Part shown: piece by piece, positions 33,826 to 44,508 of the stretch
Layout: each line of letters opens with the position of its first letter
Position numbering within the stretch: position 1 is the stretch's first letter
Assembly: GCA_963775465.1 (NCBI GenBank)
Contig: CAVZIW010000001.1
Span: 352,001-416,000, forward strand
Source of the DNA: Candidatus Bathyarchaeota archaeon
Lineage (GTDB): Archaea; Thermoproteota; Bathyarchaeia; Bathyarchaeales; Bathycorpusculaceae
Reading direction: 5' to 3'
Length of the DNA stretch: 64,000 bases
Translations under genes and position numbers: made by a program
Notes under the pieces: model-generated
The model's input: the letters and a program-made list of their open reading frames with translations, nothing else
What the model was told of the DNA's origin: nothing
The model's database searches: none

Positions 33826-34047
33826 TTATGGAATTTCAGGAATAGGCGTCGGTTCCAGCGCTCCATCTAGAGCGCTATTGGTTTGATTGAGCATATTGTT
33901 GATATAACTCTGAAGCGGTGTAAGGTTCTGAGCAAAATCATTGGAAGACATCGTAGTTTGAGCTAAGTTCACTGTATAACCAATAACTACGCAAGCAAGG
34001 ACTACACTGGCTGTTACTAATAATAAAGCTGCAACTGTTGCCTCCAT
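33826..34047 (-). CDS. Short pilin-like membrane protein lacking a basic leader
   Basis: MEATVAALLLVTASVVLACVVIGY resembles a mature pilin N-terminal helix; AAGGAG SD. Confidence 0.6.
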   Translation of the reverse strand: MEATVAALLLVTASVVLACVVIGYTVNLAQTTMSSNDFAQNLTPLQSYINNMLNQTNSALDGALEPTPIPEIP

Positions 34048-35719: not shown

Positions 35720-37333
35720 CTACCGTTCTCTAAACTTAAAGAAATACAATAATCCCCCAACAACTGAAGAAGCCACTATAACCCCAATTATCGGAATAGA
35801 ATATTTAAGGTACAATGGCTGCTCTGCAACTGAAAAAATATATTCTGGACCATCAACCTCGAAAGCAACTGGTGTCTCCAGCGAAGTCGCAGTTATTGAG
35901 TAGTTGCCTGAGTTAGGAGGCTTAAAAGTCGCTTCAAAAGTCCCATTTGAAGCTATCGTGCAGCTTAAAGTTTTGTTGAAATTCGCCCCCAAGATATCTA
36001 ATCTGACTGTTGAGGCATTAGTAACTGGGCTTAGAACACCAATCACAGTTATGTTCTCACCAAATCGTATTTTATCGCTAATTATTCCGTAATCTAAGGT
36101 TGAAGCCATCTTTACTGTATAATTTCCAGATGACTGCAAAATATTTCGTAGAGAATCTACAGCCTCTATTCTATATTGCACAATTGACCCTGCCTCTTGA
36201 CCGGGTATTGTCGCACTGCAAGTATTGTTATCAATTGACATGCTGATGCTACTTTGGTCGGTCCAATTGTTTGCAGTATAGAAACAGGTTGCACGTTCAA
36301 GACTGTTAGATATGGATGAGTAAGAAAGTTCGGTTTCATTGCCGGCGAAGGCTGTTTTTGGAGCTGTTGCAGGCACCAGTGATTCGTTCCCGAATTGTGT
36401 CTTGAGCATGAATTGGATTTCTCCGGAGCCTCCTTCACCTATCAGAACTAAGTGGTAGAGGTTAGTAAATTTGTTAGTCGTTGAGTAGTTTAGAAACATG
36501 GGTTGACCTAAGTATTCACAGCTGGCATAGGCGACTCCTCTTGATCCTTCACTCTCAAAATTGTAGCCCCCGATCTTACTGGTAACGTTAGCGTATAGCC
36601 CTTGTTCCCATGGAAGAGGATAAGAGTTTATGCTGAGGGATTTGGCGTCATTCATTAGGTATAATCTAGCTTCGTACATATCTAATGTGTTGGGAACTTT
36701 AACGTAGAGCTCAAGGTAGCTGGCATTTGACAACAGTTCATAGGCCCAAGAGGTGTGAAAACGTGGCAATCCACTGCTGTCTTTGCCTTCGATTTGAACG
36801 GTGTGCCAAATGTCTGTATCGAGGTTTTCTATGACCATAAAAGTTGCTTGCTCGCTTCCTTCACTTTCTCTCAAATCATTCTTTATTACAAATGAGTAGT
36901 TGCCAGAAAACTTTGGCGTAAAAAGAGGATCATCAGTTGTCGTTCCCAAATGCTCCGGAAAACCTGCAGCTTCAGTGTGCAAACTCTCCAAGTTTCCTTG
37001 TGGATTATAAACATAGATGTCATAGTCGGTTTTTGCTGCAGAAGATGTGTTAACCCATGCCCCGTAACAGTAGACATGGTAGTTATGGTTAGCTTCGAGC
37101 GGTACTACAACAGTCCAGTTCTCGCCGATTTGGATCTGACTGTTGTTTATCATTACTGGAAAAAAGGGTTTGTCAACGTATGTAATGTTTCCGTTGCTTG
37201 AGTTTACATATGTGTGAACATAGGCTGTGTAGTCGTAGGTGGAGGTTAGTTGCAAACCCAAGCAGGTTGGGATCAGAAGCAGAGCGACGACTAGTATTAC
37301 AGGTAGAATTTTGGTGTGGATTTGAATTTTCAT
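35720..37333 (-). CDS. Secreted multi-Ig-like cell-surface protein with C-terminal TM anchor
   Basis: Signal peptide, many N-glycosylation sequons, beta-rich modules, TM plus KFRER tail. Confidence 0.8.
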   Translation of the reverse strand: MKIQIHTKILPVILVVALLLIPTCLGLQLTSTYDYTAYVHTYVNSSNGNITYVDKPFFPVMINNSQIQIGENWTVVVPLEANHNYHVYCYGAWVNTSSAAKTDYDIYVYNPQGNLESLHTEAAGFPEHLGTTTDDPLFTPKFSGNYSFVIKNDLRESEGSEQATFMVIENLDTDIWHTVQIEGKDSSGLPRFHTSWAYELLSNASYLELYVKVPNTLDMYEARLYLMNDAKSLSINSYPLPWEQGLYANVTSKIGGYNFESEGSRGVAYASCEYLGQPMFLNYSTTNKFTNLYHLVLIGEGGSGEIQFMLKTQFGNESLVPATAPKTAFAGNETELSYSSISNSLERATCFYTANNWTDQSSISMSIDNNTCSATIPGQEAGSIVQYRIEAVDSLRNILQSSGNYTVKMASTLDYGIISDKIRFGENITVIGVLSPVTNASTVRLDILGANFNKTLSCTIASNGTFEATFKPPNSGNYSITATSLETPVAFEVDGPEYIFSVAEQPLYLKYSIPIIGVIVASSVVGGLLYFFKFRER

Positions 37334-37578
37334 GTGCTTTGCTAACCAGCTTGGAAATTTGTTTTTTAAGAGCTTAAAGTTGAAGATAATCGTTATGAAT
37401 GATAGATCTTGATTTTTGCTTCAGTTTCAAACTATATGGTTTCGTTAGTGTAGATTGATCGAGATAGTTCTTTGAGAACATTTTGTTGAATTTAGGGTAA
37501 TAGTAGCATGTTAGCATCAAGTATTGTTTTGTTTTTATTCGCAGCAGCTAACCATTAGTATTGAATCGTAATACGTAA

Positions 37579-37588
37579 TATATATAAA
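37579..37588 (+). promoter_or_regulatory. TATA box of the pilin A gene
   Basis: TATATATAAA about 40 nt before the ATG, followed by an AGGTGA SD. Confidence 0.55.
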
Positions 37589-37629
37589 TGTAATTGTGTG
37601 TAATTTTTGCTACAGGTGAAAAACACTAA

Positions 37630-38190
37630 ATGATCCGAATACTAAAAAACCGACGAGCACTAAGCACAGTAATCACCACACTCATAATTCTAGTAGTATC
37701 AGTCCTACTCGCAAGCGTAGTTGCCTATTATGCAACTAATCTTGTCAGCACAAGAGTACAAGAAGAAAGCCTCTACGTATCCAAACAGCATGTATGGGTA
37801 AACTCAGAAGGTGTCGCAGAAGCAGCAGTAATGGTAACAAATAACGGTGGACGAGACGTTGTAATCAGCAAAGTTTCCACTCGAGGACAAACAAGTGAAT
37901 GGACAAGTGTGTTCTATGAAGTAGCAGACCCAGAAGTAGATGACCTCACTGTCGACTTAGCATACATAGCAGCCCCCGTAACAGCAGCTAGCGACTTAGG
38001 ATTAGCAGCCACTGCAACTGCGGCAGCAAGAAATCTAATCCTACCTTCAGGATCAACAATGGTCATATACGTTAACAGTCCTGACAGCATCGGCATCACT
38101 GATATTGGATTAACAGTCAGCATCGCTCTCCACACAGCCAACGCCGTCTACTACAGTGAAACCAACATTCAGGCAATCACAGGAACCTAA
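37630..38190 (+). CDS. Type IV pilin/archaellin-like major subunit, copy A (intact)
   Basis: Class III signal MIRILKNRRA|LSTVITTLIILVVSVLLA; TNNGGRDVVI motif. Confidence 0.88.
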   Translation: MIRILKNRRALSTVITTLIILVVSVLLASVVAYYATNLVSTRVQEESLYVSKQHVWVNSEGVAEAAVMVTNNGGRDVVISKVSTRGQTSEWTSVFYEVADPEVDDLTVDLAYIAAPVTAASDLGLAATATAAARNLILPSGSTMVIYVNSPDSIGITDIGLTVSIALHTANAVYYSETNIQAITGT

Positions 38191-38315
38191 AAATCTAATA
38201 TAACCGTCGCAATCTTTTTTCTCTTTTTATCATTTTCCACGTTTGTTATTTTTTTTACGCACAAGACCACATATCCAAAAAACACGTAAACGCTTCTCAG
38301 GAGAACAAAAAACAA

Positions 38316-38896
38316 ATGAGAAACATACTAAGAAATCGTATGGCTCTAAGTACAGTCGTAACAACGCTGATCATCCTTGTCGTTTCAGTGCTACTCGCAG
38401 GAGTCGTAAGCTACTTCGCAATCAACGTCACCAGCACAAGAGTACAAGAAGAAAGCCTCCAACTCACAAGCCAACACATCTGGGTCGACTCAGAACGGTG
38501 ATAGCCCAAGGTGCAATAATGATCACTAACACTGGCGGACGAGACGTCGTCATAAACAAATTAGCAGTCCGAGGCCAAACAAGCGCATGGACATACTAGT
38601 ATTCTACCTCATGGCAGCAACAGGCGATACCGGCAAAACCACTGACTTACCACACCTTCAAAGTCGTACTAGTTGCATGCTGGCAAGGTTGACAGGATTC
38701 GCAGCTACATTAGCAGCAACCGTCAAGGAACTTGGTCTTGCCATCAGGCAAACAATGGTAATCTACGTTGCAATCACCAGACAGCATAACCATCAACGAC
38801 ATCGGCCTAACAGTCGCATTCACAGTGTTCACATCACAAGCAATGTACTACAAAGAGACCAACGTAACACGCAATACGCCTAATCGCATAAGATAA
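38316..38896 (+). pseudogene. Pilin copy B, frameshifted in this assembly
   Basis: MRNILRNRMA|LSTVVTTLIILVV...; homology to copy A continues across frames to AMYYKETNV; indels fall in variable blocks. Confidence 0.8.
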
Positions 38897-38912
38897 GCAT
38901 AAATCAACAATA

Positions 38913-38934
38913 ACCCCCTCCTCCCTTTCTTTAT
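38913..38934 (+). terminator. Pyrimidine-rich terminator-like tract after pilin B
   Basis: ACCCCCTCCTCCCTTTCTTTAT, also present after copy C. Confidence 0.5.
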
Positions 38935-39364
38935 ACCTAAAAAAATAAAACAATTTTCCGCGATAATAATCTGTAATCTACAATCACACATAGTGGCATT
39001 TTCCATCAAGATTAACTTGTCAACTTGACAGAACGAAGTGCCAATTAAACTGTTACTATATCAATGTGATTTTAAACATTGCTAGTAGAGTTTTACTTCA
39101 TAAACTTGGCTGTTTCAAAATCGAGTTTAGCTTATTTTAATATTAACTAATTTTCTGGAGTTATGTGAAAAATACAAAGCATAGTTTTCCGCTTCTCTTA
39201 TTATGATCTTTAATCTTACATTTTCATCATTTGTCATTTCATTTGATAAAAATTTCTTCAAGAATCATTTTATGCACGAAATATTGATTGTTTGTTATTT
39301 TTTTTACGCACAAGACCACATATCCAAAAAACACGTAAACGCTTCTCAGGAGAACAAAAAACAA

Positions 39365-39953
39365 ATGAAAAACATACTAAGAAATCGTATGGCTCTAAGT
39401 ACAGTCGTAACAACGCTGATCATCCTTGTCGTTTCAGTGCTACTCGCAGGAGTCGTAAGCTACTTCGCAATCAACGTCACCAGCACAAGAGTACAAGAAG
39501 AAAGCCTCCAACTCACAAGCCAACACATCTGGGTCGACCAGCACGGTGATAGTCGCAGGGTGCAATAATGATCACTAACACTGGCGGACGAGACGTCGTC
39601 ATCAACAAATTAGCAGTCCGAGGCCAAACAAGCGCATGGACAGACGTATACTACCTCATGGCAGCAACAGATGATACTGGCTTAACCGCTGACTTACCAC
39701 ACCTCGACAGACAGTACCCAGCCGAACTGCAGCAGGCACATCCGTACAGGATTTGCAGCTCAGCTGCATTAGCAGAAGCATCAATGAACTGTCTTGCCAT
39801 CAGGCGAACACAATGGTAATCTACGTTGACTCACCAGACAGCATAACCATCAACGACATCGGCCTAACAGTTGCATTCACAGTGTTCACATCACAAGCGA
39901 TGTACTACAAAGAGACCAACGTAAACGCAAAGCTTACACCAGGCAAAAGATAA
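39365..39953 (+). pseudogene. Pilin copy C, frameshifted in this assembly
   Basis: MKNILRNRMA|LSTVV...; split over ORFs 39203-39568, 39568-39819 and 39753-39953. Confidence 0.8.
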
Positions 39954-39970
39954 ACATAAAACAACAATAA

Positions 39971-39992
39971 ACCCCCTCCTCCCTTTCTTTAT
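39971..39992 (+). terminator. Pyrimidine-rich terminator-like tract after pilin C
   Basis: ACCCCCTCCTCCCTTTCTTTAT. Confidence 0.5.
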
Positions 39993-40140
39993 TACCAAAA
40001 AACAAAGTCGCTTGAAAATGCTAAATTTACTGCAGACTAAATATTCTGATACAGATTAAGATCCAGTTTAATGTGTCTTAATTCATACACACAAATCCCT
40101 TAATGGCATTTTCTTGAACTAAAAGTAAGGAGAAGTAACT

Positions 40141-40978
40141 TTGACCCATAGGACAACTAACACCTTTAGAAAGCTAATGCACTCTAGGTTAGCTGTTGCT
40201 TTACCTGTTACTTTTCTTATTCTTTTTGTAACATCTTTAGGTCTTGTATCAGCAACTTACTACTTCTCAATACAGAAGATCGGCTCTGAAAGTCAAATAA
40301 TAAAGATCGTTACGGCTAAAGCAGACTTTATTTCTCTAAATGACAAGATTCTCTCAACAATCTGGAACCCAGGTTCTTCCTCTACTATTAACATAAAGGA
40401 TTCTGGCGGATTGACCAGAATTCAGCCTGAAAGCAATCAGTTGCAAATTTCAGTTGACGATGCTTCAAGCATATCATGAAGAAATCTTTGCATCTCCTAT
40501 CGGCAAAGTAGTATACGAATTACCTTATTCAGTGACCTCTCAATCGGGTGTGTTCCTGGAGGGCGATAGCCGACCGATCGTGAATCAAACAGGATCAACA
40601 CAGAGCCAAATGAGCATTGTTAGAGGAGCTGAACACCCTGAAATTCATCTAAGTTACAGACCAGTTGTTTCCTATTCTGCTGCAGGATTGGAAAATGGAA
40701 AACAATTAAACACCATCAGAATTTACGTCATAAACCTGAACTCGTCAACGAGCATCGACTCACAAGGCGAGTTGCCTCTTCGAGTCAAATGCCTTGACGC
40801 ACAATTAACAACTAAAAGCTATGAATTCTCTTCCCAACCGCCTAATCTGACGATAACAGCCACAAAAGAAGATTCCGTAGGAACCGTTGTTGTCCCATTG
40901 TCGAGCAACGCTCAGGGAGCGATAGTCAACATAGAACTTGTTGTTGTAAACGTTGCAATCGAGAGGTGGATACGATAA
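40141..40978 (+). CDS. Minor pilin-like protein split by one frameshift near 40474
   Basis: Basic leader ...HSRLA|VALPVTFLILFV; removing one base in AGCATATCATGAA joins the 112-aa and 174-aa ORFs. Confidence 0.7.
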
Positions 40979-40979
40979 G

Positions 40980-41423
40980 ATGCCCAGCATAATCCCCGGT
41001 TACGTGTATTCTTTATTTGCTGCGCTTATCGTCGGCACGATAATTGTTGGCAGTTGCAGCGCTATAATGCTAAATGTTAAGAATAAAGCTGAAAACCAAC
41101 AATTGAGCAACATAAACGCATACATCGCAACGGAAAGCTTAGCCTTACTTTCTCAAACGACTGCCAGCAATCGAAATTCAACACAATACCTCCAAATACC
41201 AACCGATATAGGAGCTAGACAATACTGGGTTCGGATTGCAAATGATTCGTCACATGCTTGGATTGAGTCGGGTTTTGGAACGACAATTATCCCTGGTCAA
41301 CCTGATATGTATATTCCAGCCAAGATCTCAGCTTCAGGAACTTATGTAAGCAATTCGGGTAGAGCCTATCTAATTTGTCAAATTGAAAATCAGACTGCGG
41401 TTTTAACGTTAACCAATAGGTGA
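40980..41423 (+). CDS. Pilus accessory/minor pilin-like protein
   Basis: ATG 40980 after GAGGTG SD; N-terminal hydrophobic helix; IPTDIGARQYWVRI motif. Confidence 0.7.
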   Translation: MPSIIPGYVYSLFAALIVGTIIVGSCSAIMLNVKNKAENQQLSNINAYIATESLALLSQTTASNRNSTQYLQIPTDIGARQYWVRIANDSSHAWIESGFGTTIIPGQPDMYIPAKISASGTYVSNSGRAYLICQIENQTAVLTLTNR

Positions 41424-43000
41424 TGTCTATGAAACTTGGTAAAAAGAAACAAGAAGAAATTCAGCAAGAAAAGAAAGCTTCAGACGAAGAAATGATAACT
41501 TACCTAGGCATTCAAGGCTATCAAGTCCCGGAAGGGTACATTCAAATAGAGAGTTATCCCCTCAACGCACCTTTCTCTTACGCATGGATTTTTCAGGATG
41601 AATCCGACGGAGGCTACTTCTACGTTATTGACGAATTACCTATGACTAAAACAGAAAGAGAACAGTTCTATCGCTTAAAGAACATTCTAGAGTATGAACT
41701 AAAAGCTCCAAGAGTAGATGAAACCCTTGTAGATTCATTTCACAGGCAGCTACCGACAATAATCGATGCACACAAATCAGCTTTTGCAGACGGCGATGAA
41801 GTCGGATTAAGAAAAGTAAAATACTACCTTGAAAAAGACCTCATAGGCTACGGCAAAATTGACGGACTAATAAGCGACCAACTGATAGAAGACATAAGTT
41901 GTCTTGGAGTAAACAAACCGATCTACATATATCACAGAAAATATGCCAACGCACGAACAAACATAGTTTTCACCGACGAAGAAGATCTTGACGATTTTAT
42001 TACTAGAATAGTTCACAGACAAGGAAAACACGTAAGCATCGCACACCCAATTGTGGACATTACCCTTCCTGGAAAACACCGTCTTGCAGTTGCTTTCGGA
42101 AAAGAAACCACACCTGCAGGTTCAAGCTTCACAATAAGAAAATTCAAAGAAGACCCACTAACAATTGTTGACCTCATAATAAACGAAACCATCGATGAAT
42201 CCATCGGCGCATATCTCTGGATGCTCATGGAAAACAAAATGTCAGTGATGATCGTAGGACCAACTGGAGCTGGAAAAACAACTGCATTAAACGCGATAGC
42301 TTGCCTTGTTAGACCAGATTTCAAATTGATATCCGTGGAAGAAGTTCAAGAAATTAACCTACCACAAGAAAACTGGGTATCCACCATCGCAAGAACAGGT
42401 TTCGGTGGAGATAGCGAAGGCGAAGTTACACTCTATGACTTAATCAAATCAGCTGTAAGACATAGACCAGCATTAATTCTAGTAGGCGAAATCAGAGGAG
42501 AAGAAGCATACGTATTGTTCCAAGCCCTTGCAACTGGTCACGGAGGCCTCTGCACAATGCACGCTGACGACGTCGAAACAGTAATAAAAAGACTAACTCA
42601 GCCACCGATGAATATTCCCCAGAACATCCTCTCATTGATGAACTGCGTTATAGTCGTTAAGCAAGTAAGAACCTCTGGCCTCAACCGAGGCAAAAAGATG
42701 TCGGGAAGAAAATTCGTAACAGTCTCAGAAATCGACAACAATGGATTACCCGGTGAAGTCTTCGCTTGGAACATGAAATCTGACACCTTCAAACAAAGCC
42801 TGGATACCAGCTATCTATTCAGAAAAATCGCCAAGAGCCAAGATGTACCATTAAGCGTTGTTCGTCAAGAATTCGCTCGAAGAAGACAAATTCTTCTCAA
42901 CATGGTCGAAAAGAATCTTCGCGATTTCAAGAGCGTACACAAAGCACTCAACAGCTCAATAAATACAATCAACTTGTCAGAGACTTCTGAGGAGGATTAG
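41420..43000 (+). CDS. Type IV pilus assembly ATPase (VirB11/TadA/ArlI family)
   Basis: IEDISC, FTIRKF, Walker A GPTGAGKTT, Walker B ILVGEIRG, His box TGHGGLCTMHA. Confidence 0.95.
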   Translation: MMSMKLGKKKQEEIQQEKKASDEEMITYLGIQGYQVPEGYIQIESYPLNAPFSYAWIFQDESDGGYFYVIDELPMTKTEREQFYRLKNILEYELKAPRVDETLVDSFHRQLPTIIDAHKSAFADGDEVGLRKVKYYLEKDLIGYGKIDGLISDQLIEDISCLGVNKPIYIYHRKYANARTNIVFTDEEDLDDFITRIVHRQGKHVSIAHPIVDITLPGKHRLAVAFGKETTPAGSSFTIRKFKEDPLTIVDLIINETIDESIGAYLWMLMENKMSVMIVGPTGAGKTTALNAIACLVRPDFKLISVEEVQEINLPQENWVSTIARTGFGGDSEGEVTLYDLIKSAVRHRPALILVGEIRGEEAYVLFQALATGHGGLCTMHADDVETVIKRLTQPPMNIPQNILSLMNCVIVVKQVRTSGLNRGKKMSGRKFVTVSEIDNNGLPGEVFAWNMKSDTFKQSLDTSYLFRKIAKSQDVPLSVVRQEFARRRQILLNMVEKNLRDFKSVHKALNSSINTINLSETSEED

Positions 43001-43002
43001 AA

Positions 43003-44508
43003 ACGAAACCTCAAAACGGCTTTCTAGGCAAGATAAACCATTTGTTTTCCAAGGCTACAAGTGAAGAAAAAGAAAAAACTGAACGTGAACTACCGTTTGC
43101 AGTTATGATTTTCACTCTGATGGCAGCAAGCGGCATTTCCCCTTATGACAGCTGGAAAAGGATGAGAAAATTAAGTTTCCTGCCGGTGTTCAAAAAGGAA
43201 GCCGACGAAATAGTACGCCAAGTTGAAGTTTTAGGAAAAGATCCGCTGTCAGTGATGCAGTCGCGCTCTGAATCCACAAAATCAAAACTCTACAGGAATT
43301 TTCTAGGAGGCTTTGTTTCCTCAGTAAGAAGCGGGGGAAAACTTGCCGACTACATGAAAAGTCAACTAAAATCGATTTTTGAGCTGCGAAGCATAGGAAT
43401 GAATAGGTCTATTGAGCGAATAGCATCTCTAGTTGAAGCCTACTCAGTAATGTTGATTGTTGTTTTGTGCACTTACATACTCTTCGTTGTTTTTGCCTCA
43501 ACCAATGTTATGGAGCTTTTGCTGAATTCATCGGTGTCAATTTCGCCGATAATGTCTTACTTGATTGCTTTTATTGCAATGCCATTAATGACTGGAATTT
43601 TTATTCTTATAGCTCACAACATGCAAGCCAGTGCTTTTCCAGATTTGAAAGATGTCTATAAAAAAGGGCTAATGCTCATTATCCCAGCCTATGCTGTAAT
43701 AGGCTTTTTTGGATTATATTCACCTATGCTGGACGCAATTGCTCCGATGGGGCTACCAGAAATCACTACAATATGCTTAGTTGCTGCGTCACTTCCGATG
43801 GCAATCCAATACTTTCGAATTGCAAAAATTAACTACAACGCAGAAGACTCAATCCCCAGCTTCATCCGTGACATAACAGAATCACAAAAGACAGGCTTAT
43901 CACCCGAAAAAAGCATCGTACAAGCAACAAAACGCAAAGACTATGGAGTATTCTCAAAATTCCTCCTACTTATACGAAGCCAAATTGAATGGGGAATACC
44001 ACTAAGAAAAACCTTCGAAAACATGAAAAAGCAAATTCGAAGCTGGTTTGTTGTCGTAAATTTCGCCATGATGGTCGAAACCATAGAAATCGGCGGAAAT
44101 TCAATACAATCATTAGAAATTCTCTCGGAATATAGCGAAAAAGAAAGAGAATTACAAGTAAATCGCCGAGAACTCTTAAAACCCTACATAATCCTTGCTT
44201 TCATCTGGAGCGCACTAATTGCAGTTACAACCACGATTGTAGCCTTAACAACTGGAATGATGACCTCAGTTGTCAGCACCAACTTAGCATCCGCAGGATC
44301 AATGGCTATGGGAAATCAACTAAACGTATTCTCAGTTGGAATAATAATCCAATGCTGGGTCTCAGGCTTCTTTATCGGAAAAATAAGCGAAGGAAACTTT
44401 GGAGCTGGCTTCAAACATTCAGCACTATTAGCTGCAACAGCTTATGGTTCACTTGTAGTGTCAAATCTTCTCTTGGCTGGAGCATTCAACATAGAACTAA
44501 AAATATAA
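43003..44508 (+). CDS. Pilus platform membrane protein (TadC/ArlJ, two T2SSF domains)
   Basis: ERELPFA...AASG and EDSIPSFIRDI...G repeats, multiple TMs; in-frame ACG at 43003, 7 nt after GGAGG (track start TTG 43042). Confidence 0.9.
   Translation, partial: TKPQNGFLGKINHLFSKATSEEKEKTERELPFAVMIFTLMAASGISPYDSWKRMRKLSFLPVFKKEADEIVRQVEVLGKDPLSVMQSRSESTKSKLYRNFLGGFVSSVRSGGKLADYMKSQLKSIFELRSIGMNRSIERIASLVEAYSVMLIVVLCTYILFVVFASTNVMELLLNSSVSISPIMSYLIAFIAMPLMTGIFILIAHNMQASAFPDLKDVYKKGLMLIIPAYAVIGFFGLYSPMLDAIAPMGLPEITTICLVAASLPMAIQYFRIAKINYNAEDSIPSFIRDITESQKTGLSPEKSIVQATKRKDYGVFSKFLLLIRSQIEWGIPLRKTFENMKKQIRSWFVVVNFAMMVETIEIGGNSIQSLEILSEYSEKERELQVNRRELLKPYIILAFIWSALIAVTTTIVALTTGMMTSVVSTNLASAGSMAMGNQLNVFSVGIIIQCWVSGFFIGKISEGNFGAGFKHSALLAATAYGSLVVSNLLLAGAFNIELKI

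Follow-up and report, generated by a model that had tools for sequence, protein, structure and literature searches.

Tandem type IV pilin genes of Bathyarchaeia with constant blocks probably homogenised by gene conversion, divergent central loops and frameshifts of probable consensus origin

Analyses of the twin cassettes found behind an intact pilin gene in a Bathyarchaeia genome indicated that they are a genuine tandem pair of pilin genes, B and C, in which the constant parts have probably been homogenised by gene conversion while the loops diverged, and whose frameshifts probably arose from a consensus over mixed alleles. The feature is half artefact and half biology. Together with the upstream gene A, these archaeal type IV pilin genes lie ahead of an ATPase/platform operon.

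The window is the whole stretch of 64,000 nucleotides analysed from the source genome, G000, which belongs to a sediment member of the Bathyarchaeia; related genomes and loci carry handles of the type G0xx, G1xx, L0xx, L1xx and L2xx. Pilin A (37630..38190, forward strand) is intact, as the initial annotation had it, spans an open reading frame of 186 aa, shows 96% identity to its counterpart in the sister genome G022 and is the older paralogue relative to B and C. The coding regions of B (38316..38890, end approximate) and C (39365..39953), both on the forward strand, are each spread over several reading frames in the G000 assembly; the two genes are full-length direct repeats with the same leader. 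Alignment of the repeats confirmed the twin cassettes described earlier: constant block 1 (repeat D1, 38241..38489 and 39290-39538, forward strand), comprising leader, signal peptide and N-terminal helix, extends over 249 nt at a spacing of 1049 bp with one mismatch, in codon 2. The leaders (38241..38315 for B and 39290..39364 for C, forward strand) are identical and carry an AGGAGA Shine-Dalgarno-like site.

The further constant blocks and the terminator tract that the cassettes were said to have in common were also recovered on the forward strand, with 97% identity for constant block 2 (D3, 38507..38596 in B and 39556-39645 in C), 98% for constant block 3 (D2, 38774..38867 and 39831-39924) and 91% for a C-rich and T tract, a probable terminator, behind each gene (D8, 38912..38944 and 39970-40002). 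The claim that B and C differ in discrete blocks held for the variable hairpin after WVD (38490..38506, forward strand, in B and 39539-39555 in C, with indels in both copies), for the central ~40 codons (38625..38745, forward strand, in B and ~39672-39795 in C, limits approximate) and for the tail, while the differences "after SAWT" and "around YVD" turned out to be 1-2 nt indels at single variable codons. The B-C spacer (38945..39289) is a unique sequence of 345 bp with homologues in G022 and in the metagenome contig L052. Its identity to G022/L052 is 52-73% per 60-nt window and that of the upstream DNA 82-100%; the spacer either evolves fast or is swapped between lineages via the flanking pilin blocks.

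Pilin A matched the Pfam family Pilin_N (PF07790) with an E value of 2.6e-5 and 25.4 bits against a cut-off of 25.2. The AlphaFold model of the intact sister allele G022_2 (pLDDT 86.5, 70-row alignment) revealed a helix at residues 2-42 followed by strands, and its top fold match was the Pyrobaculum pilus 6W8U (Z 10.1, rmsd 7.2, 128 aligned), with other archaeal pili and archaella ranking close behind and archaellins at Z 8.9 and below; crenarchaeal pili ranked highest. The modelled protein thus has the hydrophobic N-terminal helix and beta-sandwich head of archaeal type IV pilins. The central variable region corresponds to residues ~96-135 of the model, which form short helices and coil between beta-strands and which, from what is generally known of archaeal pili, presumably face outward. 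In the usual class III signal peptide, cleavage follows a [KR][GA] motif. B and C (38316-38345) have R-M-A before LSTV, which departs from this motif; A has R-R-A, and a basic residue at -2 is not a family trait. Among relatives the context was mostly R-x-A with x hydrophobic or aromatic (RLA 128, RWA 31, RYA 24, RMA 13).

Downstream, all on the forward strand, are the first two accessory genes of the pilus operon (40141..41423, from open reading frames and synteny in relatives), a type IV filament assembly ATPase (41420..43000; Pfam T2SSE, E 1e-32), which scored 330.5 bits and so under the FlaI cut-off of 550, and a TadC/PilC-like platform protein with two T2SSF stretches (43042..44508; Pfam T2SSF, E 9e-20), whose UpsF, BasF and ArlJ scores were all under the cut-off. 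The T2SSE and T2SSF genes (41420-44508) are linked to the pilins and the synteny holds in relatives, and no match to ArlF, ArlG or ArlH was found among the 12 proteins scanned at the locus. In comparison with G022, a +1 indel, probably a consensus error, interrupts the accessory gene at 40141-40978; most relatives examined have this gene as a single open reading frame. On the reverse strand, a 73-aa open reading frame at 33826-34047 has an N-terminus that is hydrophobic and resembles those of pilins; it matched no Pfam family above cut-off.

The motif TACRCACAA was identified on the forward strand before B (38256), C (39305) and the pilus operon (40086), and in reversed orientation before A (37594-37602, reverse strand), so that four of its 21 genome-wide copies are at the pilin locus. 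It was present in 125 of 194 B-like leaders versus 3 of 73 A-like leaders and is a candidate regulator or promoter site. The Rfam scan of 30-48 kb gave 0 matches, and a sigma-70 promoter and terminator scan, of a kind unsuited to archaea, showed no excess over shuffles.

The tandem duplication of B and C is genuine: sister records show the same A-B-spacer-C layout. Contig C26 of G022, a genome with 95.8% mean identity to G000 (269 ORFs), carries A, a B-type gene, the homologous spacer and then 70 nt of the next copy, and a second G022 contig starts right after the position of C; L052 shows the same A-B-spacer order into the start of C. The same three copies were found in G113, and the two-copy layout in L054 and G113, while L051 and L053 contain just one B-type copy each; L051 matches both G022 contigs at 100% identity, and its lone copy may be a collapse or a real deletion. 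Tandem pairs are also present in the complete named genomes L210 and L185.

A match to pilin A was found in 31 of 41 related genomes. Among 78 named loci with relatives (73 from Bathyarchaeia, Bathyarchaeota or Bathyarchaeum and five labelled 'Thermoproteota archaeon' or 'uncultured archaeon'; this set overlaps the handle-based set and their counts are not summed), the copies within +/-3 kb numbered one in 15 loci, two in 50, three in 10 and four in 3. Pairs at least 90% identical over the first 141 coding nt occurred in 16 of the 78, and fully identical copies in four, including Candidatus Bathyarchaeum tardum, whose complete genome (L210) has two identical tandem B-type pilins behind a third. 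According to the accessible part of the source, no pili were seen on cultured cells of this organism (PMC10477458), which is a tractable test case. Spacer lengths differ among lineages, and within each of G000 and G022/L052 species-specific leader variants are common to both copies. Since the spacer is homologous and position-matched loops persist across species, the duplication predates the splits of G000/G022/L052 and of G129/L103/L107.

The frameshifts in B and C are probably a consensus artefact of mixed alleles, because they are in large excess, sit at hypervariable codons and are missing from intact alleles. Relative to G022, B showed four net frameshift clusters in 571 nt and the other genes together 21 in ~252 kb (269 of the 293 ORFs of the sister genome could be aligned), the latter an upper bound as some may be real, so that the indel density in B is ~80-fold over the genome background. 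Compared with eight close alleles, all eight of them intact, B contains 8 indel sites and a garbled tail and C contains 6. All 14 sites lie beyond codon 57, none in codons 11-48, and coincide with or adjoin family-variable codons (local entropy averaging 3.12 bits versus a background of 1.89; resampling p ~1e-5), in agreement with the earlier remark that the frameshifts fall in variable stretches. That the extra bases resemble superimposed alternative codons rather than decay was likewise supported by the intact alleles, the indel excess and one codon for which C has GAAC, the union of GAA and AAC, and B has AA, their overlap; the G113 copies read GAAC and AAC. The 21 sequencing runs compared all contained contigs of other strains (best share 0.23 of words), and the related-strain contigs in run X3 are without the extra bases at nine B positions.

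Broken pilins are also frequent in other genomes. In a set of 28 genomes, each with no more than 60 contigs, 20 of 67 pilins (34.8 kb) were broken versus 22 of 137 neighbour genes (142.8 kb), ~3.7-fold more per kb; the loci had been chosen by their multiple matches, a criterion that favours broken genes, and 10 of the 28 genomes were affected. Four fragmented genomes had nine pilins with no broken one among them, and the 124 complete pilins of JGI metagenome loci, for which the search favours intact genes, were all unbroken. Breaks occurred in A-type copies too and in G114, G010 and G011, where the fetched region holds no near-identical pair; therefore strain diversity matters besides cross-mapping. 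G000 appears to be a long-read consensus, judging from its 15 contigs. Elsewhere in this genome, at C6:69606-75216, five +1 indels relative to G022 were noted in three adjacent genes (by eye a DNA methylase, a helicase and a permease), which mark either a second error-rich patch or a strain-variable one.

Alignment of intact tandem pairs from G114, G129, G132, L127 and L191 revealed constant blocks that are 95-100% identical and centres that are 45-79% identical. Pooled dS over 11 tandem pairs was 0.137 in the constant blocks and 0.72 in the centre, the former value being biased low because these non-independent pairs were preselected for high N-terminal or constant-block identity; between different records it was 0.18 and 0.27 for 16 close B-type pairs, and 0.22 and 0.37 for 13 A-type pairs. 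Because synonymous distances show the same contrast, the block pattern is not just protein constraint. With the pairs preselected, tandem paralogues were closer to each other than to orthologues, silent and non-coding sites included, as in concerted evolution.

In two quartets of sequences the grouping differed inside and outside the loop, most cleanly in the first. For G129_2, G129_3, L103 and L107, whose array positions are confirmed by the flanks, 29 of 33 informative sites outside the loop grouped by genome or source while 10 of 11 inside it grouped by array position (runs test p 5e-5). For G000 B, G000 C, G022_2 and L052, all 33 of 33 sites outside the loop grouped by species, and 7 of 14 loop sites joined B to G022_2 and C to L052 (p 0.04 in the runs test); a quartet of G000 and G113 gave no position signal (1 of 13 loop sites). 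The loop limits were drawn after the alignments had been viewed, a choice on which the Fisher tests depend and of which the runs tests are independent. For the 22 copies in the 11 pairs the constant blocks were always nearest to the tandem partner, in part through pair selection, while the loop was nearer another record in 15, several of them marginally, and nearest its own tandem partner in 7. Together with the intact pairs and the dS contrast, the quartets support the earlier proposal that homologous recombination between conserved anchors shapes these genes, and the pattern as a whole points to segmental gene conversion that mostly spares the loop.

The sequences of L052 and G022 are identical over ~4 kb except for one block of ~130 nt in the central loop. 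Either near-clonal strains have swapped this loop, or the assembly changed over from one copy to another with identical constant blocks; both readings require recombination confined to blocks. A reverse pattern was noted at L036:6549-7821 (G025), where first and second pilin are 82% identical in the centre and 77% in the constant blocks, and in L044/L144 (G047), where the centres are unusually alike at 71% against 75%; therefore loops can also be copied between paralogues.

Strong purifying selection acts on the constant blocks (pooled dN/dS 0.05). Within the loop dN/dS was 0.47 for B-type genes of different records, 0.61 for tandem pairs and 0.20 for A-type genes, as pooled region-level values from uncertain loop alignments. 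The central region is accordingly under weaker constraint (0.47-0.61 against 0.05-0.24), and the expectation of a loop dN/dS above 1 was not borne out by the pooled values (0.47-0.61).

The following mechanism would most likely account for these observations. B and C, each with its own leader, are probably intact and expressible in living cells, and both may be expressed since both keep a leader with the TACRCACAA motif. Ordinary homologous recombination between the neighbours, through gene conversion or else unequal crossover, would do the homogenising, the pattern of which is seen in relatives, and would repeatedly transfer leader, signal peptide, N-terminal helix, core beta-strands and terminator between the two genes. 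The central ~40 codons may be too divergent for frequent conversion, or selection may keep them different, and each copy would therefore carry its own loop. In this way a single cell could build pilins that share the assembly interface and differ in their outer loops, while occasional longer tracts would replace loops or restore identity and copy number would drift between 1 and 4. The frameshifts would result from a consensus over mixed reads, through cross-mapping of B and C and through strain variants. The homogenised constant blocks in the few-contig genomes G000, G113, G129 and G114 could partly be a polishing artefact, and L052, G022 and L051 could be assembly chimeras of the B and C of one strain.

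An unlikely though possible explanation is active surface diversification, with frequent loop exchange among tandem copies and co-occurring strains through the constant anchors under pressure from viruses or predators; if true, many mosaic alleles would exist in a population and the locus would serve as a functional counterpart, in archaea, of pilin antigenic variation that does without silent cassettes. It is favoured by the ~130-nt loop difference within 4 kb of otherwise identical sequence, by related loop types in different backgrounds (L052, L056 and an X2 contig), by the garbled loops and tails of B and C that differ much, by the higher loop dN/dS of B-type (0.47) than of A-type genes (0.20) and by the need of some viruses for pilins when infecting Sulfolobus islandicus, according to the accessible part of PMC7217056. 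However, in 19 distinct-allele pairs with at least 98% constant identity the median loop identity was 95.6%, and close records therefore usually share the loop; loops keep their array position across species, fully identical copies occur at four of the 78 named loci, dN/dS in the loop stays under 1 and no dedicated recombinase, reverse transcriptase or G4 was found. The excess of broken pilins over neighbour genes in the 28 genomes would also fit, but comes from loci picked in favour of broken genes. A scan for loop transfer between distant species gave no strong case (largest excess ~8 points, in a noisy alignment). With a similarly low probability, a donor-free form of variation can be imagined, in which 2-4 expressed tandem copies would act as mutual templates and as landing pads for foreign loops, sometimes with swapped glycosylation islands, so that populations would maintain many mosaic pilus surfaces and escape pilus-binding viruses.

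Repeated independent recent duplications with later import of a foreign loop by one copy, or with fast relaxed loop drift, a birth-and-death process with no lasting conversion, would explain the copy number of 1-4, the spacer lengths that vary by lineage and the fully identical pairs, and tandem flagellin pairs are described as indistinguishable from independent duplication in the accessible part of PMC6053082. This process is nevertheless improbable, given that the B-C spacer of G000 is homologous to that of G022/L052 while leader variants are species-specific and common to both copies, and given the position-matched loops that persist across species. That B and C are decaying pseudogenes, with A as sole working pilin, would agree with their frameshifts in the assemblies of G000 and of G113, but is very unlikely in view of the indels confined to variable codons and absent from codons 11-48, the intact close alleles, the complete JGI-locus pilins without a break (in a search favouring intact genes) and the dN/dS of 0.05 in the constant blocks. 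Hardly credible is a misassembly that placed two strain alleles of one gene in series: L051 does join A, one copy and the downstream operon at 100% identity to both G022 contigs, and L053 has a single copy too, yet the unique 345-bp spacer has homologues in G022 and L052, L054 and G113 show the two-copy layout and tandem pairs exist in the complete genomes L210 and L185.

The search for dedicated variation systems covered G000, whose completeness is 92%. High scores in blastn, tblastn and profile searches were confined to A, B and C, with no further B/C-like cassette; relatives carry 1-4 copies within +/-3 kb, and the collapsed large multi-copy array suggested by the initial annotation is not supported. 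Neither silent 5'-truncated donor copies (B and C both keep the leader and 5' end) nor a separate template copy of a diversity-generating retroelement (DGR) was detected in this genome, which also gave 0 matches to reverse transcriptase (PF00078) and to IS110/Piv recombinase (PF01548), so that the extra cassettes, template repeat and reverse transcriptase for which a search had been proposed were not found there. Five tyrosine recombinases are encoded in the genome, none within 270 kb on this contig; no three-tier G4 motif was identified on either strand of 36001-41500, and 44 pattern matches in viral contigs included no relative.

A diversity-generating retroelement was rejected for want of a reverse transcriptase in the 92% complete G000. 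The Moraxella-type Piv/IS110 switch consists of inverted pilin copies and an IS110-family invertase; such an inversion switch was rejected because B and C are direct repeats and PF01548 had 0 matches. Membership of the Neisseria pilE/pilS system likewise found no support, since silent donors are needed and none were found in G000, nor was a G4; the analogy drawn in the initial annotation does not hold at the level of a donor system, and the clearest recombination signal is in the homogenising direction.

Pilin copies are separated by stretches of 8-13 kb that contain genes for glycosyltransferases, radical SAM proteins and epimerases at L025:6000-14500 (G014), L146:3700-12280 (G098) and L027:2800-15300 (G007). 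Two B-type copies surround this stretch in opposite orientation in G098, and an A-type pilin with its neighbour is inverted in G007. Such an arrangement may represent a glycosylation island that can be swapped, or else an inversion with its anchors in pilin repeats.

Anoxic sediments harbour Bathyarchaeia in abundance, and the surface biology of these archaea has hardly been studied. Segmental conversion, as proposed here, marks the loop as a fast-changing part of the pilus and a concrete candidate for a virus receptor or adhesion determinant, and places a pilin among the few archaeal genes under concerted evolution. Pilins of this kind often appear as pseudogenes in few-contig metagenome assemblies, and fragmented assemblies break or collapse at them; gene counts at such loci are therefore unreliable.

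In the literature searched, most subscription papers and supplements being outside its scope, no description of tandem or variable pilins in Bathyarchaeia was found; were the loops actively shuffled, this would be an archaeal pilin variation system of which none was found described there. A 2026 survey of archaeal type IV filaments (PMC13705601) assigns Aap-like systems and subsystem 4A to Bathyarchaeota, with minimal loci of ATPase, platform and pilin; the words 'tandem', 'gene conversion' and 'variation' are absent from its main text (0 occurrences), and its supplements may show the locus.

The comparisons that follow refer to the accessible parts of the papers cited. Sulfolobus islandicus carries two near-identical pilin genes per genome, pilA1 and pilA2, identical in 7 of 12 strains (PMC7217056). 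The Bathyarchaeia pilins resemble this Aap-type pair in the near-identity of the copies and in a related fold (6NAV, Z 8.2; 8Q30, Z 8.6), but the S. islandicus copies are on opposite strands and similar throughout, whereas those of Bathyarchaeia are direct tandem copies with a divergent central loop, and the need of some viruses for pilins is a feature of S. islandicus (PMC7217056) and a candidate role here. In Streptococcus sanguinis there are 2-3 major pilin genes per locus, and PilE1 and PilE2 are almost identical over the first 110 residues and both present in filaments (PMC4832360). Diversity is limited to one part of the pilin there as well, although those proteins are bacterial type IVa pilins with a variable C-terminal 30%, while here a central loop varies between constant blocks (PMC4832360).

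Tandem archaellins of haloarchaea, such as those of Halorubrum lacusprofundi R1S1 and the ecoparalogs of Haloarcula marismortui, for which virus evasion has been proposed (PMC6011602, PMC10117864), likewise provide several filament subunits with a conserved N-terminus and a divergent remainder. Those copies are archaellins and old paralogues that are 43-44% identical, whereas the Bathyarchaeia pilins are homogenised at the DNA level. As in Neisseria pilE/pilS, constant blocks flank variable blocks and recombination would use common anchors; unlike in Neisseria, there are no silent partial donors and no G4, the copies are full-length with a leader and the direction is homogenising.

Campylobacter flaA and flaB are an example of concerted evolution in paralogues. 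Long-lasting concerted evolution in prokaryotes, including that of tandem flagellin genes, has been described as paralogues that are closer than orthologues at silent sites too (PMC6053082), and the tandem pilins are in the same way nearer each other than their orthologues. The archaeal cases in that account are seven, all of them methanogen genes with no pilin among them, while the process here appears segmental and mostly spares the loop. The locus behaves as duplicated filament subunits under concerted evolution do, and falls outside the Neisseria, DGR and inversion families.
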